DNA from: Patescibacteria group bacterium
Lineage (GTDB): Bacteria; Patescibacteriota; Microgenomatia; UBA12405
Assembly (NCBI GenBank): GCA_023380755.1
Contig: JAMCSD010000006.1
Span: 39,841-103,840 of the forward strand
Length of the DNA: 64,000 bases
Direction of reading: 5' to 3'
The translations under genes were made by a program, and so were the position numbers. How positions within the stretch are numbered: the first letter of the stretch is position 1; every line of letters starts with the position of its first letter. This document shows positions 18,160 to 58,173 of this stretch, one piece after another. A model generated the notes under the pieces. It was given only the letters and a program-made list of their open reading frames with translations, made no database searches and was not told the origin of the DNA.

Positions 18160-18212
18160 AATTTGTTAAATTAATAATATTTTTTCCTAAGTTTTATCGT
18201 TACATATTAATA

Positions 18213-19225: not shown

Positions 19226-19317
19226 AACTTAATGAAGAATAAGACCATAGGATGGGCTAATCTATAGTCGTTGATTATTACCGTGTTAGTCGTTCGTTAG
19301 CTGTTCAGCTTGTGAGA

Positions 19318-20004: not shown

Positions 20005-20178
20005 CTACTTCGCATTATATCGAAAAGCCAGCCTATAAATCACTTTTTGTGGTAACATAAAATTGTCCTCACAATCTGTTTACCTAAACCTTCAAAAAAG
20101 GCATGGTAAGAAATCCGAGTTAAGAGACGGAAGCTCTCCGTCTAGCTTTCCTTAACTCGGTCATATACCGAAAGGTGT

Positions 20179-20451: not shown

Positions 20452-20453
20452 TT

Positions 20454-20639
20454 ATGAATAATAAAGTTACTATACTTGGAGAGGTAATTACCAAAAAAGA
20501 TTTACCTAAGCTCTATAAATGGGCCAAAGAAAACCCCGCAACCTTAGTGGAACAACTTAAAAGCATTGCCGATAAATGGCATGAAGGCAACATTCGGTCA
20601 GCTTTAATCGCTTTTGAAATGGATTTAGAAAGAATATGA
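20454..20639 (+). CDS. hypothetical small protein
   Basis: ATG 20454 is preceded by aggaaaagga; the track ORF starts earlier at 20421. Confidence 0.4.
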   Translation: MNNKVTILGEVITKKDLPKLYKWAKENPATLVEQLKSIADKWHEGNIRSALIAFEMDLERI

Positions 20640-21647: not shown

Positions 21648-21721
21648 TTACAAACCTACAGGCTGATTCTAAGTGGTAAGATATAAGCAGTAATTAGAGA
21701 GAAAATTAATATTACAAATAC

Positions 21722-24793: not shown

Positions 24794-24796
24794 TAT

Positions 24797-27642: not shown

Positions 27643-27647
27643 AAAAT

Positions 27648-28193
27648 ATGGGGATATTACGAAACCTAATTAGAAATGTTGAACCAATTACTAGAGCCAC
27701 GGTACTTCTAAAAAACTATCAAACCAAACAGGATCAACTAATCCCTTTGGTGCTTCCAGTCTTAAATGATTACGATAAAGAGAAAAGGGCATTTCTGACA
27801 ACAATATCAATCGTGTCTGCTGCCGTTGGAGCATTTTCCTTTTTGTTATACAATAGCCCCTATGTTAAAAACCCCGATTTATTAAAACTTGGAGACATCT
27901 TAATTTTGCTGACTATTATTCTCTCGATAGTGGGTTGGCTTGTTGTTTTACACAGTAACCAGAAAAAACTTCACGATACATTCTGCGATCTTATAGATAG
28001 TCTTCACTCCGCCTCTGAAAATCTAGATAATTATATTCAGCAGAAAATTAGTCAAGAAGATTTTGAAAAGAAGTTGCAGAGCTTTAACAAAGAATATAAA
28101 AGACCGAATTTCCCAGATTACTATTGGCAAATTGGATGCTGTATCTTGTTTGTTACTTCATTAGTTTTTATTGCATTAAGTTTTTTTACTTAG
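27648..28193 (+). CDS. hypothetical membrane protein (about 3 TM segments), first gene of the R-M-appended cassette
   Basis: 181 aa; hydrophobic stretches TTISIVSAAVGAFSFLLY, ILILLTIILSIVGWLVVL and IGCCILFVTSLVFIALSFF; starts 5 nt after the hsdS stop. Confidence 0.55.
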   Translation: MGILRNLIRNVEPITRATVLLKNYQTKQDQLIPLVLPVLNDYDKEKRAFLTTISIVSAAVGAFSFLLYNSPYVKNPDLLKLGDILILLTIILSIVGWLVVLHSNQKKLHDTFCDLIDSLHSASENLDNYIQQKISQEDFEKKLQSFNKEYKRPNFPDYYWQIGCCILFVTSLVFIALSFFT

Positions 28194-28222
28194 AAGTATG
28201 GAGGTCATTCTAAAGGAAGATT

Positions 28223-29743
28223 ATGGTATGTTGGTGTGGAAGTGAAAAACCGATCAAAGAGTGTCATTTTACCGATACATGGACTATTCCTTCTGTGAAT
28301 GGATTTAAGATTTCACAACCTCCCGATATTACAGACGAGGTTAAAAATAATTTAATCACACATATCAAAAAAACAACTTCAATAGATATGGTGGATACAA
28401 ATCATACTTTTGAGATATGTATTCCCGAACAGAAAATCGAATTTCTTAAACAGTCGCTAATTTATTCTGAAAAAATAACAGGTTCTAACACTTTGTCGGT
28501 ACCGCCAGATTTTGTTAATTGGGGAACTCAGCCATCTTTATCATCGAATTTTGTTACTGATAACTTGAAGTTATTATCTGAAATTAAAGACATAACTGAA
28601 ATTAACAATTTCGTTAACTTTAAAAAATATATTGGTCACATCTTTTTCGCTTCACCCGCCTCAGATTTATCAAAGAATTTAAGACTTGTAACAAAAAAGT
28701 TTAAAGAATTCTATCCTGACGGTTATATCGATTTTATTAGCGTAGATAGTAGAAACTTCGTTTTACCTGTAATATTTAGAAGTTTTGCTAAACAAGATAT
28801 ATTAGGTATCGATTTAACTAAAAAATTAATAAACTCTTCGTGGAAAGAAAAGGTTCCATTAGAGACTGGGTCAGTTTACTTTGATATTATGTTTAATTTG
28901 TTTGGAGACGGTAGTTACGGTTTTGTGAATGCGTGGCTCGATAGATGTTTGCTTCTTACTTTTGGCCAAAGAATTTCATTTAAATATTTAAGTTATGCAT
29001 CTGCTTACTCGAAAGGTTCCGACATTGGTTTTTACGAAGGAGGTGTTGACCCCGGAATGCAAGTATTTGGAGTATCACCAAATGATTTTAGGCAGTTTAC
29101 TGCATGGTATATAAGGAAACTAAACCGGCTTCTATCCTATTTAAATCATTTCGCTACATTTGCCAACAGAGTTACTTCATTCATTGATCCTGTAGCACAT
29201 TACAAATATTACTTAACTTGGGAACAAATTCTTATTCTTGTTGCAAAAATATTAGGTACAGATGACCGCACAGTTAAAAAACAGTTAACTTTCGTCTTCC
29301 TCGACATAATGGCCCACCTTAAAGGAGGACTGATAGATCATCTTTTTAAACCTAGAATACTCAGCGATATATTGAATTCATTTAATGATTTACCTAATTC
29401 TCTTAGTAGTAAATATCGAACTCATGCAGAAATAGTATTTAATAACTTAATAGATGAGGTATATTCGGGAGTCATTCCCCAGTTTGCAGTAAATGATAAA
29501 GTTGTTCTTCCCTCAGGTAAAGAGTTCGATAAATTTTCTTATGTTGGAGCTTACCTTTCTGCTTTAAGAAATACGATACATGGTTATTCTGGTAGTACTG
29601 ATGAAGAATATAAGGAAGTTATGTTTATAAACAAAGGAGAAATACCAACAAGATTGGCAGAAATTGTACCCATACTTTTTATGTATTTATTAATAAAACC
29701 AGATGTCTTTTTTAAATCCAACATATTCTCCGACATTTTTTGA
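28223..29743 (+). CDS. hypothetical protein with an N-terminal SEC-C-like metal-binding motif
   Basis: 506 aa; MVCWCGSEKPIKECH resembles the SEC-C knuckle CPCGSGKKYKKCC; aaggaag RBS upstream; the remainder is unrecognised. Confidence 0.55.
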   Translation: MVCWCGSEKPIKECHFTDTWTIPSVNGFKISQPPDITDEVKNNLITHIKKTTSIDMVDTNHTFEICIPEQKIEFLKQSLIYSEKITGSNTLSVPPDFVNWGTQPSLSSNFVTDNLKLLSEIKDITEINNFVNFKKYIGHIFFASPASDLSKNLRLVTKKFKEFYPDGYIDFISVDSRNFVLPVIFRSFAKQDILGIDLTKKLINSSWKEKVPLETGSVYFDIMFNLFGDGSYGFVNAWLDRCLLLTFGQRISFKYLSYASAYSKGSDIGFYEGGVDPGMQVFGVSPNDFRQFTAWYIRKLNRLLSYLNHFATFANRVTSFIDPVAHYKYYLTWEQILILVAKILGTDDRTVKKQLTFVFLDIMAHLKGGLIDHLFKPRILSDILNSFNDLPNSLSSKYRTHAEIVFNNLIDEVYSGVIPQFAVNDKVVLPSGKEFDKFSYVGAYLSALRNTIHGYSGSTDEEYKEVMFINKGEIPTRLAEIVPILFMYLLIKPDVFFKSNIFSDIF

Positions 29744-31541
29744 TCCACCCAATCTATTTAAAGGCATCGTCTGTATAAGTAATAACTATTTGTATTCCGC
29801 CCAAATATCGAGTTGTTTCAATAAAGGAAAGTCGTATTTTGTTGTTCTGGAGCCACCAAGGACATTACATAAATATTGGGCAAACGAGTTCCCTATGCTA
29901 AATAATATAATCGCTAGAATAAGGCCGAGAACAATAATATTTTCCAAAGTTGACCAAAAAATAATTGACCAATTCAAAGAGCACTTAAAATTACCAGAAG
30001 GTAGATACCTCTACATTAACAACAAAGATCAGCTAAATCTATTTTTAAGAACATTTAAATCATCAACTAATGGCAGTCTGAAATGTCCTCCATCAAGAAT
30101 TAAGGTCACTTATGCATTACTAGAAGCAAAAAGACGTAATCTTCAGTTAGTTATTGACTCAAAGTCAACATACAAAATTAATAAGAACCAATCAAGCAAA
30201 CACATTATTGTATCTGATACTTTGGTAAATGTACTACCATGCCTTTTAGCAAATTACGCTTTTTCAATAGATGCAGATATTCGCGTAAGTAAAGTAGATT
30301 TAAAATACGAACCACAAGAAATAATTAGTATATTAGATGGCTCAAGAATAAAAGACAAAAGAGGAAGGGCTGCTCGAGAAATCACGAAAAGCATTGTTGC
30401 TGAAATTCAAAGCAAGTTAAGTTTCCTGAAAATATACGACTTTGTTTCTTTCTTCATAGATGATTTTCCTTACGGATATTTTTTTCCCGACAAACCGTCA
30501 ACTCATATTTACAACAAATCGTTACCAAGTCATTTCTTGGCAAAGTCAATTTCGGCAAAAGGTATTCATTTGCAATCTGCTCTATTAGTGGATACAGGCT
30601 TTTTCGAAAATTCGGAGACAGAGATTATCAATTTACAATTGCAAAGAAAAAATGTGGTTACTAAAGTCTTGGAAGGTAACAAATTTACAAATTTAGAACT
30701 AAGTAAGAATGTACAATTTTTACCATATGACTTTTTGTCCATCTGTAGTCATGGAGGTTTTCCTGAGGGTGTTCGTTTTAAAGTCAAATTCAAAGATAAA
30801 AATTGTTGTGATCATGTAATTGTCATAGATACTATTGACTCATTTTTCCCAACTAATAGAGGAGAAGGGGATAACAGAATAATCGATGTTCAAACATTTT
30901 ATGAATTTGTTGAACTTGACGGAAAACCCTGGTTTGAAAAGGAGTATAAACCGGGATCGTCTAAGACCTTGGTGGAAGATTTCTTGGCAATTGGGAGAGA
31001 TCATTGGCAGGTTGTCGAAAAACAAAAAGTATTTATGAGACATTGTAATGTAATTGAAACACAGGACAAACTCGGACCTTATGTTCCTATGATTCACAGT
31101 ATTTCCGATGTCTTTTCCACTCCTTTTATCTTTAACAATTCGTGTAGTTCAACTTATACACTTTCAAGTAATTTTTTATTTGCTGGCTCTATCGCTTATA
31201 TAGGTACAGTAAATTCTGTAGGAACTATAAGTGCTGTAAAAGTTGCGGAAATGTTTGCACAAAAAGCCATTTGCGAAGAGAAACCTATCGCACTATCGTT
31301 GTGGGAGTCTGTAAGTGAATTAAATATAGTGCCAAAATATAGAGTCTATGTTTGCTTTGGATGTCATTTTAATAAATTTTTCTTTTCCATTACTGATAAC
31401 AAATTAAATCTAAAAAAAAGGATAAGGATAGAAGCTTATATGAGAAAACAAAGAATTAACGATCAAAATATGGAAGATAGTGTAAAAATAAGACACTCAG
31501 AAGCAATAGACTTTCTATTTGATGAATATCAACGAATCTAA
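29703..31541 (+). CDS. hypothetical protein with a tentative C-terminal CHAT/caspase-fold-like region
   Basis: 612 aa; DFLSICSHGG (His350, nt 30750-30752) and PFIFNNSCSS (Cys481, nt 31143-31145), followed by NFLFAGSIAYIGTVNSV. This parallels the CHAT pattern HfagHG ... lvvLsaC.s ... afl.aGa..vigtlw.v. The His-Cys spacing (131 aa) is longer than is usual. Confidence 0.45.
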   Translation: MSFLNPTYSPTFFDPPNLFKGIVCISNNYLYSAQISSCFNKGKSYFVVLEPPRTLHKYWANEFPMLNNIIARIRPRTIIFSKVDQKIIDQFKEHLKLPEGRYLYINNKDQLNLFLRTFKSSTNGSLKCPPSRIKVTYALLEAKRRNLQLVIDSKSTYKINKNQSSKHIIVSDTLVNVLPCLLANYAFSIDADIRVSKVDLKYEPQEIISILDGSRIKDKRGRAAREITKSIVAEIQSKLSFLKIYDFVSFFIDDFPYGYFFPDKPSTHIYNKSLPSHFLAKSISAKGIHLQSALLVDTGFFENSETEIINLQLQRKNVVTKVLEGNKFTNLELSKNVQFLPYDFLSICSHGGFPEGVRFKVKFKDKNCCDHVIVIDTIDSFFPTNRGEGDNRIIDVQTFYEFVELDGKPWFEKEYKPGSSKTLVEDFLAIGRDHWQVVEKQKVFMRHCNVIETQDKLGPYVPMIHSISDVFSTPFIFNNSCSSTYTLSSNFLFAGSIAYIGTVNSVGTISAVKVAEMFAQKAICEEKPIALSLWESVSELNIVPKYRVYVCFGCHFNKFFFSITDNKLNLKKRIRIEAYMRKQRINDQNMEDSVKIRHSEAIDFLFDEYQRI

Positions 31542-32491
31542 TTAGAAGTTACTTCTCTCTTCAGCTTTTGAACATATTCCTTAAAAACATCATGCATTCT
31601 TGAACTAGATTCAATTAAGAAGGAAATCATTTTTGGCCAATCAGACTCATTGAAAATATCTACTCCGGTCAATTCTGCTTTTATTCTGGAAGTTACACGA
31701 TCCTCCATTCTTTCCCAAATCAAAGGTTTACCGAATTTCAATTCAATATCTTCCTTTGATTTCACAAAAAAATCAAAAATCTCTTTGTTCTTAGTAACTT
31801 CTCCCTTGTTTATATATATTTCTGAACGAGCATAGGTACTAGTTGCAACAAGATTCAAACTTACACCAGAATAACCTAACGCTATACCGAGCCAAGCATC
31901 ATTAGTCGGATTCAGATTTTGGCACAATCTATTGTTTTTATTCATAGCTTCAATCAATTTTGTCCAGAATTCTCGTCTGACAGTAAATCTTCTTGCTGAA
32001 TCTTTTTTTTCAGCTCCGACTTTCTTCATTTCTACAGTAGGTCTCTCAACTACAGTAAAAAGGGGAGCAACTGACTCTTGCCCCTCAATTTTAATTCCTT
32101 CTACTTTAACCAAATAAAAATACATATTATCTGGCGTCGTCTCATTAAGCCATTCGACAACCTGTCGATGTTCTTCAGTGGGTTTTGCTGTTACCCAGAT
32201 AGCTATATTTGCGTCAAGGTTTACTAAATACGTGATAATTTGACCCAAATGAGTATGGTCAGTTTTTTCAAGTTGATTCTCAATAATTACTTTATTTCCA
32301 AATCCATCCTCCCCGTAAATATCTACTCGATATGGACCAACGTTTTCTTCAACCGCCTGGACAGAAATATCTAGGTCAATAATTTCATTCAGGTAGTCAA
32401 TGTTATTCGCCAACCACTTAGTAAAATCAGCAGCTTCATTTTTCCAAATATTTCGCAGGTCAACTTTTTGAATTTTATTAATTACGGGCAT
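31538..32491 (-). CDS. PD-(D/E)xK-like nuclease N-domain plus DUF4268-like C-domain protein
   Basis: 317 aa; YRVDIYGEDGFGNKVIIENQLEKTDHTHLGQIITY...IAIWV...EHRQVVEWLN matches my recollection of the DUF4268-containing family often found beside R-M genes. Confidence 0.55.
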   Translation of the reverse strand: MPVINKIQKVDLRNIWKNEAADFTKWLANNIDYLNEIIDLDISVQAVEENVGPYRVDIYGEDGFGNKVIIENQLEKTDHTHLGQIITYLVNLDANIAIWVTAKPTEEHRQVVEWLNETTPDNMYFYLVKVEGIKIEGQESVAPLFTVVERPTVEMKKVGAEKKDSARRFTVRREFWTKLIEAMNKNNRLCQNLNPTNDAWLGIALGYSGVSLNLVATSTYARSEIYINKGEVTKNKEIFDFFVKSKEDIELKFGKPLIWERMEDRVTSRIKAELTGVDIFNESDWPKMISFLIESSSRMHDVFKEYVQKLKREVTSN

Positions 32492-32556
32492 TACTGAATC
32501 GTAATTGTTTTAACAATATCCAATGATACCACTAAAATCCAATATAGGGCGAAAAT

Positions 32557-33060
32557 CTACGGCATAAACATATATCCGTATTCATCGCTTGGTCCAAAGT
32601 AGTGAGATTTGTTCAGAAGAGTATCTGCTAATTCCCAAGCAGTCATATCCTCCGAAATCCTATAACTCGCTACAACATCTATCGAACCATTTGTCCCGAC
32701 TGCTAAAGCTCCCGGATTGCCTTGGGTTGTATCTTTGGTATGCTCCAAAGCATACATAAATGCCTTTTCACTTCTAATGAAACCGTAGTATTCGAGATTG
32801 CTTATTATCGCTTCCAAAGTTGAACCGCTACCCGGTCTGAAATCCACTGTTTCGCTTTGCTTCTGTCGTTCCAAATCGCTTTGAGTAAATCGTAATTTCT
32901 CCACAAAGTAATCTTCAACTTTTTTGGGCGACTGCCAACTTTTACCTGGGGCTTTAAAATCGTCTTCCGGTATTTTGGGAGCCTGTTTTTGCCATAACAC
33001 CGCACCCAATCCTACTACCATCATCACTACCAAAATCGGAAATACTATTTTCATATTCAT
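32557..33060 (-). CDS. hypothetical membrane-anchored/secreted protein
   Basis: The likely start is MNMKIVFPILVVMMVVGLGAV (signal anchor); the track ORF extends to 33117. Confidence 0.45.
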   Translation of the reverse strand: MNMKIVFPILVVMMVVGLGAVLWQKQAPKIPEDDFKAPGKSWQSPKKVEDYFVEKLRFTQSDLERQKQSETVDFRPGSGSTLEAIISNLEYYGFIRSEKAFMYALEHTKDTTQGNPGALAVGTNGSIDVVASYRISEDMTAWELADTLLNKSHYFGPSDEYGYMFMP

Positions 33061-33134
33061 GACTAATTCTACTGCATATAAGAGAGTTATTGTCTTAGTA
33101 TGCCTGCAAACACACAAAATGGTACTATCTTTGT

Positions 33135-33902
33135 ATGAAACAAATCATTATCAATGAAGATGAGTATGACGAATTATTTAGTAAGGCAGCGAAAATTGTT
33201 CAAGAAACCCAAAAAGCCAGTGCTTCCTTAATCCAGAGAAAATTTAATATCGGTTATGCTCGTTCTGCTAGATTACTGGATGAACTTGAACACGCCGGTC
33301 TAGTTGGACCTTCAAGAGGAGCCAAACCACGAAAAATACTTATTCCCAAAGAAGAAGAAATTAAAGTTAAAAAAATTAGGTCCAAGGCAAATGACACGGT
33401 ATCAGCTAATGTTGTCGCTGAGAAATACAAAGAGAAACATGGTAATTATGTCAGGAAAATTGCTGCCGTTATTGAGCAGACTTTGAGTAGTTTCGGTATT
33501 ACTGCTCGTGTAGCTGAAGTAAACAACCGGCCCAATGATATTGAGTACTGCATAGAAATTGCCCTTGGTACTCGAACAGCAGATATTTTAGCTTTAGAAA
33601 ACGATATTGCTTTGGCACTAGCTTGCCCACCTGAGTTTTTAGTTATCGAAGCACCTATTCCGGGTCGATCCTTAATTGCTATCCGAACCCCATATCCTAA
33701 CTATGAGAATATAGAACCGACAAAATTATTACCGCCCCCCGAAGATAAGAAAGATGAGTTCCCCGATATAAAAAGAGATGATTTTGAAAATACTTGGATG
33801 AAAATAAGAGCTTACCTTAGTTTTGTGTTTTATCTTATCGCCCGATTATTTAACGTCATTGCTAATTTTATTTATCCCGAACGAAAACAAGATATTTCCT
33901 GA
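33135..33902 (+). CDS. FtsK-related protein lacking the motor: gamma (wHTH) domain, then alpha-like domain, then a C-terminal TM helix
   Basis: SASLIQRKFNIGYARSARLLDELEHAGLVGP is the FtsK gamma pattern. IEQTLSSFGITARVAEVNNRPNDIEYCIEIALGTRTADILALENDIALALA...IEAPIPGRSLIAIRTP is the FtsK_alpha pattern. No Walker A is present, and the hydrophobic tail is YLSFVFYLIARLFNVIANFIY. Confidence 0.6.
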   Translation: MKQIIINEDEYDELFSKAAKIVQETQKASASLIQRKFNIGYARSARLLDELEHAGLVGPSRGAKPRKILIPKEEEIKVKKIRSKANDTVSANVVAEKYKEKHGNYVRKIAAVIEQTLSSFGITARVAEVNNRPNDIEYCIEIALGTRTADILALENDIALALACPPEFLVIEAPIPGRSLIAIRTPYPNYENIEPTKLLPPPEDKKDEFPDIKRDDFENTWMKIRAYLSFVFYLIARLFNVIANFIYPERKQDIS

Positions 33903-34027
33903 TAGAAAATTAAGTTTTTCATAGCACAAACTTTACATTTCTCCCACTACGTTCCATATCTCCATGATGGCGGGGAGCCATCTTTCGCTAAAGCTTCAGA
34001 TGGCTTCGCCTATCGAAGCCGTCAACA

Positions 34028-34303
34028 ATGATGTTTTATACCTATATTCTCCAAAGTTCAAAATCTCACCATTTTTATTACGGTCACACCAAAGACTTAA
34101 AATCACGTTTTACGCTTCATAATTCCGGACAAGTACCATCAACTAAACCATATTTGCCATGGAAACTCGTTTGGTACTGTGCCTTTGAAACATTAAACCA
34201 AGCAAAAGATTTTGAACTTTATCTAAAAAGTGGTTCCGGCAAAGCCTTTGCCTTCAAAAGGTTAATTTCTGTAGCTTTGGCGAAAAATGCTAAACTCAAG
34301 TAA
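34028..34303 (+). CDS. GIY-YIG nuclease superfamily small protein
   Basis: 91 aa; FYTYILQS...FYYGHTKDLKSRFTLHNSG...PWKLVWY..F (GIY ... YIG ... R ... N pattern). Confidence 0.75.
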   Translation: MMFYTYILQSSKSHHFYYGHTKDLKSRFTLHNSGQVPSTKPYLPWKLVWYCAFETLNQAKDFELYLKSGSGKAFAFKRLISVALAKNAKLK

Positions 34304-34336
34304 TCCCAGGTGATCCGTAGCCGAAGGCGAAGGACA

Positions 34337-34351
34337 CCACGCAGGGGAGCA
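34337..34351 (+). repeat. degenerate copy of the tRNA-Asn 3' end (candidate attR-side scar)
   Basis: ccacgcAggggagc-a versus the tRNA ccacgcGggggagcCa (16157-16171). Confidence 0.4.
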
Positions 34352-34378
34352 TATTAAAAATAGGAGAAACAGAGACTT

Positions 34379-35095
34379 TTAAAACCTCCAAGGTTCCATC
34401 ACTTTTTCTTTATCAAAGCCTAGATCCAACATTATTTTCTGGCAATCGTTTTGAATTTCCAAAAGTAAGGTAATTATCTCATCAGATGACGTTTTCAGGT
34501 TTAATAGGGCAAGCTCATTAATCTTTTCTACGTCAAATAGCTTCTCTTTTTCAATCATATACCATCTCCATTTTTGTGGTGGTATGGTCTTGTTTTGATA
34601 TAAGTAAATAAACTTACTTAATGAATCTAAAATATTTGACAAAACAATATGTCCACCGATAATTTGCTTTCTTTTCAAACACTTTTCTAGATCGTAATGT
34701 AAATACAATTTTGAATAATTATTCCAAAGTAAACCAGTCTTATCGATTCCTTCTAAATTATTTCTTGCCTTTTCTAATAACTTCCTGCATTCATTTTTCG
34801 GATCGTAAATGATGATTGCTTTCTCAATAATCCAAGCTTGTTCCGAGTCTAATGTTAGGTTATTAAACAACCAATCCGACATCATTTCATCAACCTCTAT
34901 CTTCAAATTTGAAACCTTATACTGTTTCATAGGTTGGCTTTTGTGGTCTTTGTCAACAAGGATTCGGATATCAATATCTGTAAATCCATCTTTAATTCCA
35001 AAGCTCGAAGAACCAATCCATAGTATTCCAACTAAATCCGGATAATTGCAGTATTTAACCGACTCATTTCTGGCAATTTCTTCATATGTATACAT
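34379..35095 (-). CDS. nucleotidyltransferase-domain protein (Pol-beta/KNTase-like fold)
   Basis: 238 aa; VGILWIGSSSFGIKDGFTDIDIRILV (G-S ... D-x-D NTase signature); AT-rich. Confidence 0.55.
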   Translation of the reverse strand: MYTYEEIARNESVKYCNYPDLVGILWIGSSSFGIKDGFTDIDIRILVDKDHKSQPMKQYKVSNLKIEVDEMMSDWLFNNLTLDSEQAWIIEKAIIIYDPKNECRKLLEKARNNLEGIDKTGLLWNNYSKLYLHYDLEKCLKRKQIIGGHIVLSNILDSLSKFIYLYQNKTIPPQKWRWYMIEKEKLFDVEKINELALLNLKTSSDEIITLLLEIQNDCQKIMLDLGFDKEKVMEPWRF

Positions 35096-35274
35096 ACCTA
35101 GGATAATACAGCGTTTTAATTTCTTTGGAAGTTAACAGTATAAACCATAGAAAAAACCTTATTATATTTTTTCCTGATGTTTTCCATCTCCGAGTGCAAA
35201 AATATTGATCCCCAAAATTTTCTTTATGATCCATTACGCCGGTACGAATCCCTCTTTTGCTATAATTCCTTTCA

Positions 35275-35955
35275 ATGATTGATCAGGAATTACAGGAGTT
35301 TAAGCAAAAACTAGTAAAGCAAAATAAGCCAGGTTTAGTCTTGGATATTGATGAAACTTTATCGTGGACCGTCTCTTATTGGGTAGAACAATTACAACAA
35401 CGCTTTGGCAATCCCGAGAATTTGTCGATTATCGAAATCATCGCCAAGTACAAATACGCCCAGAATGTGCCTTATTGGCAGTCAAAAGAAGCCCAAGATT
35501 GGATGGAAGCGGCTCGGGAAAGTAATGCTTTCCAGGAGAATCTACCCCTTATTGAAAATTCAAATAATATTGTTGAACGTATTAATAAAATTGTTCCCAT
35601 TGTTGGTTACTTAACCATTCGGCCTCGCAAGGTTATCCCCGGAACACAACGATGGTTACAAAAACACCGCTTTCCTCAAGTTGATATTTTAGCCCGACCC
35701 AACACCATCCCCAGCGCTGATGGCAACAAATGGAAAGCCGCAGTCCTTAATTTCCTTTACCCGCAAATAATCGGCATCATCGACGACAACCCCGCCGTTG
35801 TCAGCCTCTTGCCCCCGGATTACGCCGGCCGAATTTATCTTTACGACAGCGATGTTGCCCCCGCAGGGAAAATAACAGTTTTCCCCTGCAAAACCTGGTC
35901 CGACGTTTACACCCAAGTTAAACAGTCTTTCCTGGCGAAACAACAGAACCCTTAA
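35275..35955 (+). CDS. HAD-superfamily hydrolase-like protein
   Basis: LVLDIDETLSW (DxDxT motif I) and a late GIIDDNP (motif IV-like). Confidence 0.5.
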   Translation: MIDQELQEFKQKLVKQNKPGLVLDIDETLSWTVSYWVEQLQQRFGNPENLSIIEIIAKYKYAQNVPYWQSKEAQDWMEAARESNAFQENLPLIENSNNIVERINKIVPIVGYLTIRPRKVIPGTQRWLQKHRFPQVDILARPNTIPSADGNKWKAAVLNFLYPQIIGIIDDNPAVVSLLPPDYAGRIYLYDSDVAPAGKITVFPCKTWSDVYTQVKQSFLAKQQNP

Positions 35956-36246
35956 GTCTAAAATCTTTCCACTCTTCGAGCAAAACGGAACTAGAGTGTG
36001 TGTATTTCATACCTCGCAGAATTAGATTGATCGTGAATTCCGGGTCTCCAAACTCCCAGAACACCCGAAGCTAAAATGGAAAAGACGGTGAGCATCAAGA
36101 CAGATAATATGACCTTAGAACGAGGCATGGGCGAGAAAGGGGCAGTTGTTATTTTTGACCTGAATAAATATTGGAATATCCGAACGAAAGAGCTGGTTGT
36201 TCCTCTCCCTTTGCAATAAGACGAGATCAACAATATCAAACGCACC

Positions 36247-51504: not shown

Positions 51505-53337
51505 ATGTCCAAGGAAAAAGCTACACTTTTCCATACCGAAAAATTAACGTTACTGCCCGGTATTACTGTTCAGGGTCCCCTAGGCCTAGATTTCTTTCAG
51601 GCTGATTCTGCCTCTCACCCTAAACTGGCCCGCGAAGCTGCCGCCCGCCGCCATCTTTATGATCTAACCAAAGCCGTCTTAGATGACAGCCAACCTTTTA
51701 ATAACCCCACCCTTTTAACCGAATTGTATCAACATCTGACCACTTTCTTGGCCGCCGATGATCTTCACGGTCGCCTTCTGCTTTATCTACCCGAAAAACT
51801 ATTGCCCGACACCCACCAGCCCGCCAAAACCACTGCCCTCCGTCAATCGGAAATGGCTTTTGTGGCTCAATATCAACAGAGTTGGCTCCGCCTCCTTTTT
51901 GAAAGTAACTCCCGAGCTGCCTTTGTTGACGGCGATGTTCTGGAGCCAGGCTTGGGTGAACCGCCCACTGTCCGCAAGGCCGCCCACCTCCTTCCCGATA
52001 TTTTGGCTCATGGCCTTGTCCCGCTTGGTGACATTGCCGACCTTTACCGCTTTTGTGATGATCCGGAATTGGTCCAGTCTTTATCCGAGGGCCTGATTGT
52101 GGCTGCCGACCACGGCCTGGTTAGTCCCGACTTTCTTCATCATCTGGGCATCGAAATCCCACCAGTAACCACCGCCGATAACACCCCTAATTCTCCAGAT
52201 CCCCTCGATTATCTTCGCCAATCCTTAATCCAAATTGATCTCCGCTATTCTCCCGGTTCACCTTTCATTTCTCATTGGAGCCCGGCCCGGATTAAATGGG
52301 ATCAGCAGGTCCAGCGCGATGCGGCTATCAACCGAACCGCCGAAATCCTCTCCCAACGTCTGATTTTGACCCCTCATTCCACGGCGGCTATTGATACTTT
52401 ATTTACCCAGCGTGGTTATGACCATGCTTATACCCTCGTCGCTTTAAAAGGCCTCTTTCTTGCCGGCCAAAATGTTTCCGCCATTGTCGATACCTACTTA
52501 CCGCTTATCACCAATCTTTGGTCGGCGGCTCCCCCCACGGAAATCAAAAATTCGATTGCCAGTGGTCTAAACCATTGGGCCCGGCTCGGTTTAGTTTCTC
52601 CTAACTTGCTTCATCATTTAAATATCCCTTATCCTGATTTGGCTTCCCCTCTGCCGGTTAGCCCCCGGGAACTGTTTACTGGTGAATTCCGGTATTTAAC
52701 TGATGTCGTCCAGACCATACACCGGGATCCCCAATTATCCACTCTCTTTTACCCGGCCATTTTGGTATTCGGCTCTCGCGTCAAAGGTATTGCTGATTTG
52801 GCCGCCGATCACGATTTAGCCGTATTTTTAAAGCCCGACACCCCTTGGAGTCAGCGTCAGCCGGCCTTGGCTCTTCTCAAAGAAAAAAATCCCTCTTTAA
52901 ATCGCCTCGACAAAATCCTGGAATATTGGGTCTCTCAAAAAGATGGTCAGCTTGGCCTAAAACCCGTCCCCGAGGGCACTACCACTGTCGCTGGTCCCGG
53001 AGAAATCCATTTCTTAATAGACGGTTTTTGGATTGGCGCCCAGGGGGGCTACGAAACTCTTTACGCCCATCTCGCCCAAAAGTATTTAGATCTCAGCCGC
53101 TTTGGTGATCAAAAATCCGCCGTCCGTTCCCAGCTTTTGCACAAACTCGAGCTTGACCTGCTGCAGTTCCGCTTAATGCACAAAGGCTATCGCCGCTTTT
53201 ACCCCACCGCCCGGCCGGTCAATGCTCCTCATGCCGCCCTGATTGATGGCGATAGTGATTTTTGGGACCCCGGGTACCGCCGCATTGCCACTCTCCTCTT
53301 TCTTAGCCGGGTCTTTTTACCGGATATCTCGGCATAA
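51505..53337 (+). CDS. large hypothetical protein with a C-terminal minimal nucleotidyltransferase domain
   Basis: 610 aa; ILVFGSRVKGIADLAADHDLAVFL (GS-x9-11-D-x-D Pol-beta-type NTase signature); the N-terminal ~400 aa are unrecognised. Confidence 0.55.
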   Translation: MSKEKATLFHTEKLTLLPGITVQGPLGLDFFQADSASHPKLAREAAARRHLYDLTKAVLDDSQPFNNPTLLTELYQHLTTFLAADDLHGRLLLYLPEKLLPDTHQPAKTTALRQSEMAFVAQYQQSWLRLLFESNSRAAFVDGDVLEPGLGEPPTVRKAAHLLPDILAHGLVPLGDIADLYRFCDDPELVQSLSEGLIVAADHGLVSPDFLHHLGIEIPPVTTADNTPNSPDPLDYLRQSLIQIDLRYSPGSPFISHWSPARIKWDQQVQRDAAINRTAEILSQRLILTPHSTAAIDTLFTQRGYDHAYTLVALKGLFLAGQNVSAIVDTYLPLITNLWSAAPPTEIKNSIASGLNHWARLGLVSPNLLHHLNIPYPDLASPLPVSPRELFTGEFRYLTDVVQTIHRDPQLSTLFYPAILVFGSRVKGIADLAADHDLAVFLKPDTPWSQRQPALALLKEKNPSLNRLDKILEYWVSQKDGQLGLKPVPEGTTTVAGPGEIHFLIDGFWIGAQGGYETLYAHLAQKYLDLSRFGDQKSAVRSQLLHKLELDLLQFRLMHKGYRRFYPTARPVNAPHAALIDGDSDFWDPGYRRIATLLFLSRVFLPDISA

Positions 53338-54756
53338 CATTTTTTCCCAACTTTCCCGAAAGCTTCGGTCCGAGGCCAATGGCCCCCGGGCCACCGCCAC
53401 CACCGGCAGTCCTAATTTCTCCTCCACGTAACCCAAAAAGACCTCTTCCAGCGTTTTCCCCTTTTCTGGTATTAGTACTTTTAGTATCGGCTCACATTGC
53501 TTTAGTAATTGGGTTAATTCTAACTGGTGCTGATATCTAGCCTTTTCGTCTTTGCTCGGATTAAATTTAATTCCTATAATAAGGCCATTTTGTATTTCAA
53601 AATAATCTTCCAGATTCTTCTGGTTTCCCTTATATTGATAAGATTCGCATACCGGCCATTCGCTTTTATCAGCTAACTTGTCTAAGTAGCTAATCATTAA
53701 ACCATTGACCGGTTGCTGCCGCCCGCTTACTTTGAGGGAATAATTTAACGCCACACTGTCATAAAATCCGTTCTGAAACTCCCCATACCAATCACTACTG
53801 GCACTATTGTGCGTCTCCCCAATTGACCGGGTTAATTCCGGTGAGTAACTGACAAAAGGTGCCTTCCCTCCGTGCCGGGTTAGGTAGCAGCGGCTCACGC
53901 CGAGGTGCACTCTTTCCCCTTGGTAAAGATGGCGATCCAGCAGTGTAGCTACCGGCCCGGGGGTCGGGTCAACCTGAGTTCCGTACGGAGCATAGCCCCA
54001 GCGGGCATCTAATAATGTCCCGTGTGAGGACTCACAAACCATCACCCCCCGCCGTTGTAATAATTCACTCAAATAACGCTCATCAGTTATTTCCACCAAA
54101 TCAGCCAAATACTTAAACGATTGTACTACTAGTGGTCCGATTTCCTTGTCGCCTAATACCGCCAATTCTGCTTCGGCTTCTGTTGTCACTTGGCCTTTAC
54201 CTATTTGGCTTACAATTTCTTGCGCCTGTTCGAGTTTCCGTAAGCGGATGGCTTCTACTTTAGCCAGCAACGCCCTTTCTTCCTCCCGAAATTCCCGTAC
54301 CCGAATACTAATCGTGGGGTCATCGGCATCCCGCAGGGCATCTCCGACCCCTTTTCCCACTGTCCCTTTCTTATCGTCACCCCGCATAATTTCCCGAAAC
54401 CGGCTAATTGCCCCATGATAAGGCGTCGTCACTAAACATGATTCATCAAGGGTAATCAGCGAGAGAGGATTCGCCACTCCTTTACCTTCGATCTGCATTG
54501 CTTCCTCAAACAAATCGGCCGGGCTTATCACCATTTGGTTGAGATACGTCGGCACGCGGTTAAAAGTCCCGCTGCTAAAATGGCTAAACATTTGCTCCCG
54601 ACCATCCCCGGTGACAATAAAATGCCCCGCCTGCCAACCGCCTTTCCGCCAAATCGTATGGGCGTTTAGCTGGTTAGCCAACCACTCCACACAGGCGCCT
54701 TTTGTTTCTTCGCCGGTGGCCAATCCGGTCACAAAAACAAATTCTTTTTTATTCAT
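53317..54756 (-). CDS. divergent adenylosuccinate synthetase (PurA)-like protein
   Basis: It aligns by eye to remembered E. coli PurA. TGEETKGA corresponds to GDEGKGK, KGGWQAGHF to QGGHNAGHT, GTVGKGVGDA to GTTGRGIGPA, and ESSHGTLLDARWGYAPY to EGAQGTLLDIDHGTYPY. The Arg-rich GATTGRRRR segment has no counterpart. The start is taken at MNKKEF (54756); the track starts at 54801. Confidence 0.55.
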   Translation of the reverse strand: MNKKEFVFVTGLATGEETKGACVEWLANQLNAHTIWRKGGWQAGHFIVTGDGREQMFSHFSSGTFNRVPTYLNQMVISPADLFEEAMQIEGKGVANPLSLITLDESCLVTTPYHGAISRFREIMRGDDKKGTVGKGVGDALRDADDPTISIRVREFREEERALLAKVEAIRLRKLEQAQEIVSQIGKGQVTTEAEAELAVLGDKEIGPLVVQSFKYLADLVEITDERYLSELLQRRGVMVCESSHGTLLDARWGYAPYGTQVDPTPGPVATLLDRHLYQGERVHLGVSRCYLTRHGGKAPFVSYSPELTRSIGETHNSASSDWYGEFQNGFYDSVALNYSLKVSGRQQPVNGLMISYLDKLADKSEWPVCESYQYKGNQKNLEDYFEIQNGLIIGIKFNPSKDEKARYQHQLELTQLLKQCEPILKVLIPEKGKTLEEVFLGYVEEKLGLPVVAVARGPLASDRSFRESWEKMLCRDIR

Positions 54757-54925
54757 AATTCCTTTCGTCCTTAAACTACCCGCCAATTGCGGGGGACTCA
54801 TCAGACTCGATTATATCGAGTGAGGAATCGCAGCCCGGCGAAGACTTTAGAAGGGAAACCTTCTTGAATCTTCGCCGGTGTTAAGCTGCCGCTTAAACTA
54901 CTGCTTTTGCAAGAGAGTAGTTATT

Positions 54926-56092
54926 CTAAAACTTACCCCAGTCCATGCCGCCTTTCTTGGTCTTTGGCGTTACCGCCTTACCGGGTGTCAACCGCGCTGT
55001 GGTCGGTTTATCCGGTACGGGGTTTTCCGCTGACCTTGGGTGGCCAATAGGCCATGGGTTACGCAGATCTGAAAACACATCACCTGGCTTGGGGATCGAC
55101 TTATAGCCGGGCAGTTTTACCTGGGCCCCAAAGTGCTCTCGCGCCTCCTGCAGCCATCCCCAAACTTGACTCACCCCAGCCTTGGTGATCCGCTTGTTCG
55201 CTCCTTCGACCGTCAGGAATTCGACCAGACCTTCCAGAGTTGGTTGTAACGTTTCCGTGACGTAAATCAAGCCGGCCTGCACCTCTGCCAGGTACTCTGG
55301 ATCGGTGACCTTCACCACTCGGCCGGTTCCTAGCACCTCGGTCCACCATTTTGTGGTGTGGGAGTGGAGCTCTCCGCCGTAAGCGACTTGCACATAAAAG
55401 ATGTGCCACTGAGTTAGGAGCTGGGCACATATCGCCTTCGTCGTCATTCGCTTTTGCCACTCCTGCCCCAGGTGCTCCTGGACATCTGCCTGGGTCACTT
55501 CACCGCGGCCAATTTCATCAGCTACGATCGACACGTATCCCTTTAGGCCGTAAAACGGGAAAATATCAGTATCCACACCCACCATCAGGTAAGCTAAGCC
55601 TAAGTCGTAGTCTTCTGTAGCATCACCGCCGCCGTGGTCAGGAACCAACAATCGGATCTGTTCGGCAATCCGTACATCAGACTCGAATTGGGTCATTTGG
55701 ACCACCGGGTGCGGGTCGCAAACGTCCTGCCAGACAGCACTTGCTACTTGGGTGTTGTACCGCCGCCGCAGCACATCAAACATCTTATCCATCGCCGGAA
55801 TTGCTTCAAAAGCCTTGCCCACCAGGGAGCCCATCGAACCGGTCCCATCGAAAGCGCCGACAATTGGCAGGGCAATTCCATTCTTCAGCACAAATCGTTC
55901 ACCGTCGCGCTCCATACTGTTATGCGACACCCGGCGTTTCCCTTTGATGTCCGCGTTCGGATCTAGTTTTCCCGTCTCCCGGAAAATCCTTTCGCCTTTG
56001 TCATGGACGGATTCTCGTGCCTCTCGCATCCGGCGAACCGTCTCGTCGTATTTGGCGCTGTTAAAAGTTGATGTATCTCCCTTTCTGCCCAT
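54926..56092 (-). CDS. von Willebrand factor A (vWA) domain protein
   Basis: 388 aa; MIDAS-like VGAFDGTGSMGS (DxTGS variant of DxSxS) after an N-terminal extension of about 80 aa. Confidence 0.55.
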   Translation of the reverse strand: MGRKGDTSTFNSAKYDETVRRMREARESVHDKGERIFRETGKLDPNADIKGKRRVSHNSMERDGERFVLKNGIALPIVGAFDGTGSMGSLVGKAFEAIPAMDKMFDVLRRRYNTQVASAVWQDVCDPHPVVQMTQFESDVRIAEQIRLLVPDHGGGDATEDYDLGLAYLMVGVDTDIFPFYGLKGYVSIVADEIGRGEVTQADVQEHLGQEWQKRMTTKAICAQLLTQWHIFYVQVAYGGELHSHTTKWWTEVLGTGRVVKVTDPEYLAEVQAGLIYVTETLQPTLEGLVEFLTVEGANKRITKAGVSQVWGWLQEAREHFGAQVKLPGYKSIPKPGDVFSDLRNPWPIGHPRSAENPVPDKPTTARLTPGKAVTPKTKKGGMDWGKF

Positions 56093-56096: not shown

Positions 56097-57056
56097 TCAC
56101 CTCACAAATGGATAGCTGACGAACACATGGAATGGCCGTTTCGTCTGCCGTTTGCCGTTGAAGACAAACGACTCTTTTGGCCAGATCCGGTTAGCCATTT
56201 CATAAATGGCTTCAAACTCATCACTGGCCCCGGTTGTCTTTCCTGTCATAATCCTGGCCAGAAAATTGACGTACTCCTCATAACCACTCCGTGGCATTAC
56301 CCCGGCATCAAAAGGTGGCTTTTTTACATTAGTTCCTCCCGCCGCATACCAGGCTAAGCCGGCTGCTCGCTTGACCTCCTCACGCTTCTCTTCGTCACCC
56401 GGCTCTTCCATCGCCGCCGAAAAATCCAGTAAAAATACCCCATGGACTTCGGTTTCCAGCAACAAGTTGCCCGGCTCGATATTCCCTTGGGAATAACCCA
56501 CAGCGTGGACAAAATCCAACACCTTTAAGAGTTTGCCCAAAATCCACTGGACGGTCGCCAAATCGACTCGCTTGCCCTCGGTCACAATCGGTAGTGGCAC
56601 CAACTGCTTATAAGTCCGAATGCTCGGATGGTACCCTAAAAACATGGCTACTTGCTTGTCGTTGGGTTCGACTACCTCGACTACCCTGGGGAAAAAAGCT
56701 CCGTAATGCGGTGGTATTTGGTCATCGGCGACAGCATCCTCATCGGTCTGCTCGGCAATCTGCTGTAATTTTTCCAGTATCGCCACTTCGCGCCTGATCA
56801 CCTCCTGAAACCCAGGGGTATTAATTTTCATCAATCCCACCTGGTCATCCGGCATCTTGGTGACATAGAACCGGAAGGTTTCCGTTTCTACTAATGGACC
56901 CGGCGCTCCGGTGGCCCGGTCGAGGACCCCAAAAACCTCATAAGTGCCTTTCTTTCCTTCAAAACTGGACATGCTAATTAGGATAGGGTCATCCTCCTCA
57001 TCTCCCGCTACCAAGGCCCCGCCAGTCAGTGGAACCACGCTTAAACACTTTTCCAT
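56097..57056 (-). CDS. protein-kinase-fold protein with a degenerate catalytic loop (possible pseudokinase)
   Basis: Order of elements: glycine-rich EGKKGTYEV, GLMKI (Lys), REVAILEKL (Glu), GYSQGNIEPGNLLL in place of H-R-D-x-K-x-x-N, and LLDFS (DFG-like). Confidence 0.5.
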   Translation of the reverse strand: MEKCLSVVPLTGGALVAGDEEDDPILISMSSFEGKKGTYEVFGVLDRATGAPGPLVETETFRFYVTKMPDDQVGLMKINTPGFQEVIRREVAILEKLQQIAEQTDEDAVADDQIPPHYGAFFPRVVEVVEPNDKQVAMFLGYHPSIRTYKQLVPLPIVTEGKRVDLATVQWILGKLLKVLDFVHAVGYSQGNIEPGNLLLETEVHGVFLLDFSAAMEEPGDEEKREEVKRAAGLAWYAAGGTNVKKPPFDAGVMPRSGYEEYVNFLARIMTGKTTGASDEFEAIYEMANRIWPKESFVFNGKRQTKRPFHVFVSYPFVR

Positions 57057-57201: not shown

Positions 57202-58173
57202 ATGGCTGAAATTGAGTTTTGGTCACCGCTTCAACAAAAATCTTTGTCATTGCCGGCAGGCGAACAACAGAAATACCTCCGCTTACTGGATACGGCCCGC
57301 ACTTCTACTTCGGTGGCTGATCAGTCTGGTCATCATGTCCGTGTTGCCCTCCTGACTGGCGCTGGCCAGACCTTCACCGGCGGTAATTATGAATATGCTC
57401 TTAGCGATTCCTTTGTTCATGCCGAGTCCTCCGCCTTAAATAATGTCTTAACTCAGTTTGGTCGGGTTCAGCTCGAAGCCTTGGCTTATGATGTGCCGCC
57501 TCCTATTACTCCAACCACTTTTTGTATCCCTTGTGGCCGCTGTCTTGATATTCTCTCTGCTTACGCTTCTCCAGATTTAGCCATTGTCGTTGGTGATTCC
57601 CGTCGTGTTTCTCTTACCTATTTAAAAGATTATTTATTTGCTGATTTTGCTAATGTTCCTCTTGACCGAGTTTCCCCGCGGGGCCAAGATGAGGCTGTCC
57701 TAGCCCTGAAAAGGGGAATCGATGCTTACTTGCCCGAAACCCATAAAGATCAAGTTTATGGCGTCGCCCTGGTCGGCAAAGACCAAATTTGGCGCGGCAG
57801 TCTTTACACCAACGCCTCTTATGATGCCGTGACCCCCATCTTATCGGCCATCCAAACCTGGCGTAATACTCTACCTCTTGAGCCTTATGATTACTCCCAT
57901 TTTCACCTCACCAAAGCCGTTGTGGCCAGTTTCCAACGCCCTCATATCTTTTACCGGGACCGCCAGGCTCTGACCGATCTTGATGAACTTATAAGGCTGA
58001 AATTTCCCTCACTCGGCCCCCTCCCTGTAGACATGTTACAAGTCGACTCCAAAACCCTTCGCCCCCTGCAGGCTTGGCGGACTAATGCCGCCGAGTGGCT
58101 GCCTTTTCCTTATACTCCCTCATCTTTCGGGATGCACGATACTTTGCATCAACTTCTGACGCAGCTAACTTAA
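57202..58173 (+). CDS. cytidine/deoxycytidylate deaminase-fold protein, two-domain (E. coli Cdd-like length)
   Basis: Zinc/catalytic motifs VHAESSAL (H-A-E) and CIPCGRCLDIL (PCxxC); 323 aa suggests a second, non-catalytic repeat. Confidence 0.6.
   Translation: MAEIEFWSPLQQKSLSLPAGEQQKYLRLLDTARTSTSVADQSGHHVRVALLTGAGQTFTGGNYEYALSDSFVHAESSALNNVLTQFGRVQLEALAYDVPPPITPTTFCIPCGRCLDILSAYASPDLAIVVGDSRRVSLTYLKDYLFADFANVPLDRVSPRGQDEAVLALKRGIDAYLPETHKDQVYGVALVGKDQIWRGSLYTNASYDAVTPILSAIQTWRNTLPLEPYDYSHFHLTKAVVASFQRPHIFYRDRQALTDLDELIRLKFPSLGPLPVDMLQVDSKTLRPLQAWRTNAAEWLPFPYTPSSFGMHDTLHQLLTQLT

Follow-up and report, generated by a model that had tools for sequence, protein, structure and literature searches.

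Is a gene that both NCBI and JGI label adenylosuccinate synthetase (PurA) an adenylosuccinate synthetase? This question is raised by a PurA-like gene on the minus strand of a 64,000-nucleotide stretch of DNA from a Patescibacteria group bacterium (contig JAMCSD010000006.1, positions 39,841 to 103,840), referred to at its full length as the window. Sequence comparisons indicated that the gene is something other than an ordinary adenylosuccinate synthetase. The encoded protein is very probably neither that enzyme nor a member of the phage PurZ family, and forms part of a module organised around a partner with a vWA domain. We propose, with a probability of roughly 0.6, that it is the guanosine triphosphate (GTP)-dependent catalytic subunit of this module and acts on a substrate other than inosine monophosphate (IMP) plus aspartate. 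The initial annotation of this DNA had already described a PurA paralogue that probably does not carry out the standard reaction of IMP with aspartate, and the loss of ligands, the equivalog scores and a separate branch in the phylogeny support this view; the partner genes, which it did not include, turned out to be the main story. The features of the locus, in window coordinates, are as follows.

51505..53337, plus strand: solenoid-nucleotidyltransferase protein, 610 amino acids, the Patescibacteria-specific fourth gene of the module
53317..54756, minus strand: PurA-like protein, 479 amino acids, of the E13/H224 Patescibacteria clade of the vWA-linked PF00709 branch
54757..54829, minus strand: predicted type III hammerhead ribozyme (Rfam RF00008), in the 169-nucleotide spacer between the vWA and PurA-like genes
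54926..56092, minus strand: vWA-domain partner, 388 amino acids, phrog_2971, identified with AlphaFold2 and Foldseek, with a MIDAS-type motif
56097..57056, minus strand: kinase-fold protein, 319 amino acids, predicted pseudokinase, with weak NCBIfam, PHROG and PADLOC kinase matches

Active-site residues of the PurA-like protein

The open reading frame (ORF) called initially, at 53317-54801 on the minus strand, is present and spans 494 codons, but its 5' end did not hold. The first 15 codons are spurious because the ATG at 54801 is the AUG inside the CUGAUGA box of the hammerhead; homologues and the NCBI record all begin at MNKKEF, which places the true start at ATG 54756 and gives a protein of 479 amino acids. 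This protein matched the Pfam PF00709 profile between positions 2 and 348 out of 416 (E=4e-39), and its top matches in the PDB were adenylosuccinate synthetases (E ~1e-20 to 1e-21). It shares with PurA (EC 6.3.4.4; PF00709; PDB 1ADE/1CG0) the same fold over ~370 residues, the helical subdomain and the C-terminal domain, at an identity of ~25%. Scores against the NCBIfam purA equivalogs (TIGR00184/NF002223) were 98 for a cutoff of 395.6 and 113 for a cutoff of 402 bits. Leaving aside the four module genes, 20 of the 53 window ORFs with 150 or more amino acids were scanned, and no purine gene was found among them.

Residue numbers are those of the E. coli literature throughout. In E. coli PurA, Asp13 and Gln224 jointly act on the N1-H/6-oxo edge of IMP. 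Aspartate is bound by Thr300, Thr301, Arg303 and Arg305, and the 5'-phosphate of IMP by Asn38, Thr129, Thr239 and Arg143, the last of which is contributed by the partner subunit of the homodimer.

Among 5.8 billion proteins searched, 56 homologues were found with identities of 41-58%; every named one came from Patescibacteria (Woesebacteria, Shapirobacteria and others), and the next matches were at or below 30%. The window protein was aligned (MAFFT) with E. coli PurA (b4177, locus L001), 72 database homologues, one mycobacteriophage relative and a PurZ protein (locus L003). All four motif changes that had been noted by eye were recovered in this alignment. The P-loop GDEGKGK is replaced by GEETKGA (D13E, G15T and K18A, with K16 kept), QGGHNAGHT by KGGWQAGHF (N38Q and T42F, with H41 kept) and GAQG by SSHG (Q224H), and the Arg-rich segment GATTGRRRRTG is aligned with SSDWYGEFQNG (T300D, T301W, R303G, R305F). 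The catalytic and substrate residues of PurA are thus not all conserved. The claimed insertion of ~60 amino acids was not borne out: the REEERALLAKVEAIRLRKLEQAQE segment (REEERALL...) aligned with the helical subdomain of PurA itself, and the actual insertions relative to PurA are of ~17 amino acids (residues 185-201 of the 479-residue protein) and ~29 amino acids (389-417).

Conservation was counted over the 57 members of the Patescibacteria clade. G12, K16, W301, G303, D333 and G416 were invariant (57/57), T239 was retained in 56, and F305 was found in 55 and P417 in 53. Glu occupied position 13 and His position 224 in 55 members each, and Gln position 38 in 54. Position 129 was Val, Ile or Leu in 53 members (Val in the window protein), Arg143 was found in none of them (E, D, N or T instead; T in the window protein) and K331 was replaced by Y, F or H (Y in the window protein). 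H41 was present in 49 of the 57, with five others having a His one residue off. Overall, the aspartate ligands together with T129 and R143 are substituted in 55-57 of the 57 members. Two to three of the four ligands of the IMP 5'-phosphate are gone (N38Q, T129, R143), leaving Thr239 alone, and the former L-aspartate pocket holds a conserved H-N-x5-W-x-G-x-F-R-x-G motif. The GTP site is kept (Lys16, Asp333, Gly416-Pro417), as are His41 and Arg272, and GTP is probably used as in PurA. Since the motif changes are conserved over a clade of 57 members, they are, as read from the alignment, a property of the clade and far beyond chance or sequencing error.

Positions 13 and 224 covaried without exception. 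The pair was E/H in 55 members of the clade and D/Q in the other two; outside the clade it was D/Q in all nine non-Patescibacteria sequences and in all 78 viral sequences with an aligned residue 13, out of 80 retrieved. In a 2026 NAR paper, Asp13 is given as conserved in 99% of PurA (PMC12884076). The coupled swap of the two residues argues for a live, not a decayed, catalytic centre.

These data bear on the simplest alternative, a bona fide adenylosuccinate synthetase in which the motif changes are Patescibacteria-specific drift. The full-length PF00709 fold, the retained GTP site, H41 and T239, and the NCBI/JGI annotation all agree with it; moreover, the gene is conserved, chromosomal and single-copy in the 64-kb window, and no canonical purA was seen in the annotated parts of the window. 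Against it, R143, T129 and all four aspartate ligands have given way to other residues throughout the clade, whereas canonical PurA proteins keep them, and the better of the two equivalog scores falls at 113 bits under a cutoff of 402. With the gene linkage described below, we regard drift of a housekeeping enzyme as a very improbable explanation.

The vWA-linked branch and its module

Diagnostic residues separated two classes of sequence. Canonical PurA proteins have N38, T129, R143, V273, T300, T301, R303 and R305, and in the alignment they hold all of these residues, including the T, T, R, R aspartate set. PurA-like proteins have Q38, C/V129, no R143, H273 (F or Y in a minority), an aromatic residue at 301, G303, F/L305 and R306. 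The window protein follows the pattern of the second class with Q38, T143, H273, W301, G303 and F305. About 200 Bixzunavirus (cluster C) mycobacteriophages encode 'PurA-like' proteins that it matched with E=7e-33 over 96-97% of its length, and in a pairwise comparison with gp104 of phage Tonenili it showed 31% identity over the full length (E=2e-49), better than with E. coli PurA. Further PurA-like matches came from Vibrio and Rhizobium jumbo phages. A scan of IMG/VR yielded at least 533 viral relatives (contigs), and the diagnostic pattern was present in all 80 that were retrieved.

The Bixzunavirus proteins (Bxz1 gp250, Tonenili gp104; phrog_1211, with neighbours phrog_2971 and phrog_3043) belong to the same branch at 31% identity and share Q38, H273, W301, G303, F305, the loss of R143 and the gene order kinase, vWA, PurA-like. 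They differ in that D13/Q224 is kept, the kinase carries a J-domain, and both the solenoid-nucleotidyltransferase gene and the hammerhead are missing. Their annotation was assigned by similarity alone.

A neighbour-joining tree was built from 369 columns and 58 sequences, rooted on one PurZ sequence and without bootstraps. Canonical PurA was monophyletic, as was the entire PurA-like group, and the Patescibacteria E13/H224 clade fell inside the D13/Q224 type. The window protein therefore grouped apart from canonical PurA in the comparison with PurA and PurZ that the initial annotation had called for. By subtraction from the counts in PMC12884076, ~365 of 767 PF00709 sequences lie outside both PurA and PurZ. 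Taken together, the residue pattern and the tree point to the vWA-linked PurA-like proteins as a putative third branch of the PurA superfamily, functionally distinct from both PurA and PurZ.

PurZ and PurZ0 (PDB 6FM1, 7ODX, 7VF6) resemble the present branch in being phage-carried PF00709 paralogues of changed specificity, and the initial annotation had drawn this analogy. A PurZ-type enzyme would join deoxyguanosine monophosphate and aspartate to give N6-succino-2-amino-2'-deoxyadenylate for 2-aminoadenine (Z) DNA. RefSeq and PHROG give the phage relatives such a name, '2-aminooxy adenylosuccinate synthetase' (NC_031080.1 gp104, NC_008207.1, NC_011271.1). PurZ, however, has Ser13, keeps the ligands of aspartate and of the nucleotide phosphate, and is linked to datZ/mazZ/dpoZ or dutZ/dmtZ, whereas in the present branch residue 13 is Asp or Glu, the aspartate pocket is lost and the gene is linked to a vWA gene. 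PMC12884076 defines PurZ by the replacement of Asp13 with Ser, present in 100% of phage PurZ; the window protein has Glu at this position and its phage relatives have Asp. The control PurZ protein of L003 keeps N38, T129, T239, V273 and R305, has Ser13 and N333, and is encoded beside DatZ/MazZ-type genes with no vWA gene in its locus. Identity to PurZ was ~20-22%, the aspartate site is gone in the window protein, and none of datZ/mazZ/dpoZ or dutZ/dmtZ was found beside the PurA-like gene in the window or related loci. Membership of PurZ was rejected because the defining Ser13 is absent, and we attach almost no weight to a PurZ-type activity.

The '2-aminooxy adenylosuccinate synthetase' label is probably a propagated misannotation, because the phage proteins keep Asp13 and lack the aspartate pocket. 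Hundreds of phage genes and a clade of Patescibacteria carry this label or that of adenylosuccinate synthetase, and the evidence goes against both. The mislabelling affects metabolic reconstructions of the candidate phyla radiation, where it bears on purine salvage capacity, and predictions of Z-genome phages.

The vWA gene lies on the same strand, 169 nucleotides ahead of the corrected start codon of the PurA-like gene. Its product required structure prediction, since a sequence-profile search of the PDB gave no match. The AlphaFold2 model (predicted local distance difference test score, pLDDT, 89.5) matched vWA domains in the PDB with a Foldseek probability of 1.0 (integrin beta-I, NorD, vWF-A3, Ku80), and viral vWA proteins in BFVD with the same probability. 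D82-x-T84-x-S86 and D192 are invariant in the family, which would provide a metal site of the metal-ion-dependent adhesion site (MIDAS) type. The protein is homologous to Tonenili gp105 (340 amino acids, E=4e-14), both matching phrog_2971, and an exhaustive profile search at E<=1e-10 placed 1210 clusters (50% identity) in the vWA family.

To establish how strictly the two genes are paired, six-frame ORFs around PurA-like loci were searched with profiles. A vWA gene adjoined the PurA-like gene in 98 of the 98 testable loci: 12/12 in Patescibacteria, 78/78 in viruses and 8/8 in the remaining group (Tonenili, L009-L014 and the second triad of L027). In two apparent viral exceptions the PurA-like gene sits at the edge of the contig. 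No PADLOC defence-system model fitted the PurA-like or vWA proteins, generic kinase matches being the only ones obtained. No description of a pairing between PF00709 and vWA proteins was found in the literature searched.

This obligate linkage, hereafter the dyad, also speaks against a divergent adenylosuccinate synthetase, as does the occurrence of the branch in phages that infect Mycobacterium, Vibrio and Rhizobium, hosts with a PurA of their own. The initial claim of a non-standard reaction is backed by the same distribution and by synteny with vWA, pseudokinase and nucleotidyltransferase genes and not with purine genes.

The third gene of the module encodes a 319-residue kinase-like protein that matched the catalytic region of the Tonenili kinase; the order kinase, vWA, PurA-like is the same in Tonenili and on the minus strand of the window. 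The Asp of the HRD motif was replaced in 7/7 orthologues examined (QGN in the window, VGF, INW, IGA, HGN, HGA and, in the L027 paralogue K302, HCN), and the beta3 Lys is absent from most of the Patescibacteria orthologues. Searches with a kinase profile detected a kinase-fold gene in 12 Patescibacteria loci, in Tonenili, L009 and L027, and in ~21 viral loci (about a quarter). The kinase-fold proteins of L009 and Tonenili bear an N-terminal J-domain with an HPD motif. These substitutions lead us to predict that the kinase-fold protein is a pseudokinase serving as scaffold or regulator.

The fourth gene converges on the PurA-like gene, the two sharing 21 nucleotides. Its 610-residue product consists of an alpha-helical solenoid (residues ~1-410) followed by a C-terminal minimal nucleotidyltransferase domain, with weak Pfam Polbeta and NCBIfam MntA matches at residues 418-451. 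The sole match in a profile search of the PDB was the nucleotidyltransferase HI0073 (MNT, E=2e-4). The AlphaFold2 model had a pLDDT of 86, and Foldseek gave weak HEAT/ARM matches alone, which were uninformative for the N-terminal part. The gene adjoins the PurA-like gene, in varying orientation, in all 14 Patescibacteria loci with downstream sequence; a search for a phage homologue found none.

One Patescibacteria genome (AMAZON02, WARW01000001.1, locus L027) encodes two paralogous triads 4.5 kb apart, one of the D/Q and one of the E/H type. The second of these triads is as follows.

L027, 1597-5424, 4.5 kb upstream of the E13/H224 module: 302-residue pseudokinase, 515-residue vWA protein, 448-residue PurA-like protein

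Its vWA protein has an inserted beta-rich domain and its PurA-like protein is of the D13/Q224 'phage type'. Two paralogues in one genome, each in a kinase-vWA triad, are a further point against a housekeeping enzyme and for the non-standard reaction. A suspected canonical purA at the edge of L015 was found to be a second PurA-like paralogue in another kinase-vWA triad.

Two known kinds of system resemble the module. In the TerY-P triad, a TerY-like vWA protein is combined with a Ser/Thr kinase and a PP2C phosphatase, and the triad has been connected to phage-host conflict and Ter-linked biosynthesis of a nucleoside-like metabolite (PMC11090510). Both the triad and the module combine a MIDAS vWA protein with a kinase fold, in a cassette that is compact and mobile or duplicating. 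The module kinase differs in having no catalytic Asp and no match to a zinc ribbon or OB fold, no PP2C domain was present in any module gene or immediate neighbour, and the third component is a PurA-fold enzyme dependent on a nucleoside triphosphate. The MoxR-vWA, CobS-CobT and NorQ-NorD pairs likewise couple a P-loop NTPase obligately to a MIDAS vWA adaptor. Their NTPase is an AAA+ ring ATPase, in contrast to the PurA (SIMIBI-class) fold with ligase-type residues found here.

The latter pairs suggest a different role for the dyad, that of a non-ligase GTPase switch or chaperone of the SIMIBI class which, together with the vWA adaptor, would reshape a client protein or load it with metal. MoxR-vWA, CobS-CobT, NorQ-NorD and the G3E metallochaperones would be its analogues, and the pseudokinase and J-domain, the latter by recruiting Hsp70, its co-factors. 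Indeed, vWA proteins classically partner NTPase chaperones, the NorD vWA domain is among the top structural matches, the kinases are degenerate, a J-domain with HPD occurs in the phage and L009 proteins, and the Arg143 that completes the homodimer is gone. The active-site region of the clade is also rich in His (H41; H42 in 44/57, H224 in 55/57 and His273 in 50/57 members; the HN motif) and could form a metal site. On the other hand, H41 is kept and positions 13 and 224 covary strictly, as would follow from continued use of PurA-type proton transfer and oxyanion chemistry; there is no Cys-rich metal motif and no AAA+ partner, and the phage copies have fewer His (Q224, N42). A switch or chaperone is unlikely on this balance. 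Ligase-type chemistry, taken by itself as opposed to such a role, we consider about an even call.

If the PurA-like protein is the GTP-dependent catalytic subunit, as we favour, it would use GTP to phosphorylate, and thereby activate, a lactam or carbonyl oxygen of an acceptor, as in PurA chemistry. The attacking nucleophile would differ from free aspartate, and the handle by which the acceptor is held from that of IMP. Given the retention of T239 and of an amide at position 38, the acceptor might still resemble a purine, but would probably lack the canonical 5'-phosphate handle. The vWA partner could recruit or present the substrate, or complete the active site by standing in for the homodimer Arg143 that has been lost, with the pseudokinase acting as scaffold or regulator.

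Several observations weigh against this proposal. The tree has no bootstrap support and includes a single PurZ sequence. Three of the 57 clade members have no His at or beside position 41, and the window protein itself has Gln306 where most members carry Arg. The persistence of T239 and of the amide at position 38 also makes a nucleoside monophosphate acceptor possible. The pseudokinase and J-domain hint at regulation at the protein level, perhaps without ligase chemistry, and the viral neighbourhoods described below may be a mere generic 'nucleotide metabolism' region. A small probability also stays with the divergent housekeeping synthetase.

What sets the branch apart is a strict vWA partner and, frequently, a pseudokinase or J-domain, an architecture that was undescribed for this fold in the literature searched.

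A predicted hammerhead ribozyme in the spacer

When the vWA/PurA-like spacer was searched with Rfam RF00008, a match of 30.3 bits (E=1.5e-4) was obtained, under the gathering score of 48.5. At the gathering thresholds Rfam returned no match of any kind within the module, either in the window or in 10 loci. The call was therefore made from the E-value on the spacer, manual parsing and covariation. RF00008 scored 17.8 bits in L004 and was unreported at E<=1 in L005. The sub-threshold score is due to an insert in helix II and to the short helices.

In the parsed structure, UUCCU (54827-54823) pairs with AGGAA (54763-54759) to form helix III, which is open. C17 is nucleotide 54822, and cleavage is predicted between 54822 and 54821, after the triplet CUC and before an A. 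Helix I (54821-54805, 7 bp) is followed by the CUGAUGA box (54804-54798), by helix II (54797-54767, GUCC...GGAC with the insert) and by GAA. The minimum-free-energy fold reproduced this three-helix junction exactly (z=-2.6). The element thus resembles RF00008 type III in its CUGAUGA and GAA cores, its N-U-H triplet (CUC) and three covarying helices; it differs in scoring below the gathering threshold, in its position within an operon and in the placement of helix III over the ribosome-binding site of the downstream gene.

In nine of the 13 Patescibacteria loci a hammerhead was found preceding the PurA-like gene, and 11 instances were identified in total. The copies outside the window are listed here.

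L004, ~7945-8000: one hammerhead copy
L005, ~7943-8000: one copy
L015, ~2348-2400 and 4910-4960: two copies
L017, L018, L019 and L021: further copies
L022: two further copies

In L015 and L022 the second copy lies upstream of the kinase gene; a hammerhead was looked for at this place in the window and none was found. Hammerheads were absent from all phage loci. Across the 11 instances 95.5% of the cells were paired, 9 of 16 pairs showed compensatory changes, and none of 500 shuffles scored as high; slid-pairing controls gave 25-53% paired. The core was CUGAUGA in 8/11 instances, CCGAUGA (U4->C) in 2/11 and CUGACGA in 1/11. Judging by these variants, the copies may not all be equally active.

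In the window, the 3' strand of helix III, AGGAA, is at the same time a Shine-Dalgarno-like sequence 2 nucleotides before the ATG. An AGGR helix III strand lies 2-6 nucleotides before the ATG in the five closest PurA-proximal copies and 9-25 nucleotides before it in L005, L017 and L021. Because of this position, folding and cleavage of the ribozyme might gate translation or uncouple the enzyme from its partners. The hammerhead would cut the operon transcript shortly before the PurA-like ORF, and helix III would sequester the ribosome-binding site, probably uncoupling or tuning expression of the enzyme relative to that of its partners. A hammerhead over a ribosome-binding site within an operon offers a compact, testable case of ribozyme control of a bacterial gene.

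The spacer holds two more hairpins between the vWA stop codon and the hammerhead (54830-54925, minus strand), AACUACU...AGUAGUU and CCGGCGAAGA...UCUUCGCCGG. At the corresponding position, L004 and L005 carry a strong hairpin of another sequence, GUGUACCCAC...GUGGGUACAC. These hairpins could be a terminator, an attenuator or a tertiary element of the ribozyme.

Genomic neighbourhoods and other features of the window

The Patescibacteria module is found in an ordinary chromosomal setting. Its neighbours are RarA/MgsA, a spermine-synthase-like methyltransferase and SecA in L004 and L005, and RelA/SpoT, an SDR, a P-type ATPase and a subtilase in the window, where it lies outside a mobile low-GC island. 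The module appears to be chromosomal and vertically conserved.

The phage dyads have different neighbours. Among them are NAD salvage genes (NAMPT, NadE, a nicotinamidase-like protein, NMNAT/Nudix), NADAR, TROVE/DUF7788, a GuaC/IMPDH-like gene and PRTase-like genes, together with 'Swiss-army-knife' RNA-repair HAD phosphatases, R2K ATP-grasp ligases, ATP-dependent ligases, polynucleotide kinase (Pnk), PTH2 and tRNAs. A jumbo-phage survey by the Aravind group assigned such genes to counter-defence acting on NAD, nucleotides and RNA repair and did not mention a PurA homologue (PMC7824862). This neighbourhood suggests a role in counter-defence involving nucleotides, RNA or the translation apparatus. 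The branch occurs both in episymbionts with reduced genomes and in large or jumbo phages, with genes for NAD salvage and RNA repair nearby, and on this distribution it is a candidate phage-host conflict system or a candidate system for a nucleotide-derived metabolite.

A more specific conjecture, which we put forward tentatively and consider rather improbable as a whole, is that the dyad is a GTP-dependent modification system. It would activate an oxo group of a purine-like moiety by phosphorylation and join that moiety to an amine on a macromolecule or on a small protein presented by the MIDAS, or aminate an RNA base, and so produce a nucleotide-protein or nucleotide-RNA adduct. In phages it might serve as counter-defence against host defences directed at nucleotides, NAD or translation, and in Patescibacteria it might be a domesticated core function under hammerhead control.

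In 48 of 80 viral loci, a helical protein of ~115 amino acids with a ...MLDLSP...LASDFDS... motif is encoded beside the dyad, mostly directly upstream of the vWA gene (L093 4731-5114; L010 8876-9217; the L028-L107 set). It had no Pfam or PHROG match and is a candidate substrate or regulator. The metagenomic locus L009 has a gene (6957-7871) for a 304-residue pyruvate-kinase-type TIM barrel (PF00224, E=2.6e-8) between its vWA and PurA-like genes, which hints at a small-molecule step of the phosphoenolpyruvate/pyruvate type in certain forms of the module. A gene divergent from the window's module (57202-58173, plus strand) encodes 323 amino acids that include a zinc-binding domain of the cytidine/deoxycytidylate-deaminase type (PF00383, E=3e-7); this gene does not recur beside the module in L004, L005 or L007.

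The low-GC island extends over ~16000-36000, with a GC content of 0.32-0.38 compared with 0.46-0.50 elsewhere, and is probably an integrated mobile or defence element. It starts with a tRNA-Asn (16097-16171) and a large serine recombinase (16130-17752, minus strand) and encodes a type I restriction-modification system (hsdR 21722-24793, hsdM 24797-26410, hsdS 26407-27642), a DUF4268 protein and three ORFs of no known function. A LOOT RNA (Rfam RF03000; 20081-20200, plus strand) was detected in the island at 69.7 bits, above the gathering score, flanked by a Trans_reg_C protein and a DUF7639/FtsK-gamma protein. Finally, a tRNA cluster at 1683-4313 contains tRNA-Ile (anticodon UAU) and two tRNA-Met(CAU), one of which may serve as initiator or, if lysidine-modified, as an Ile tRNA.

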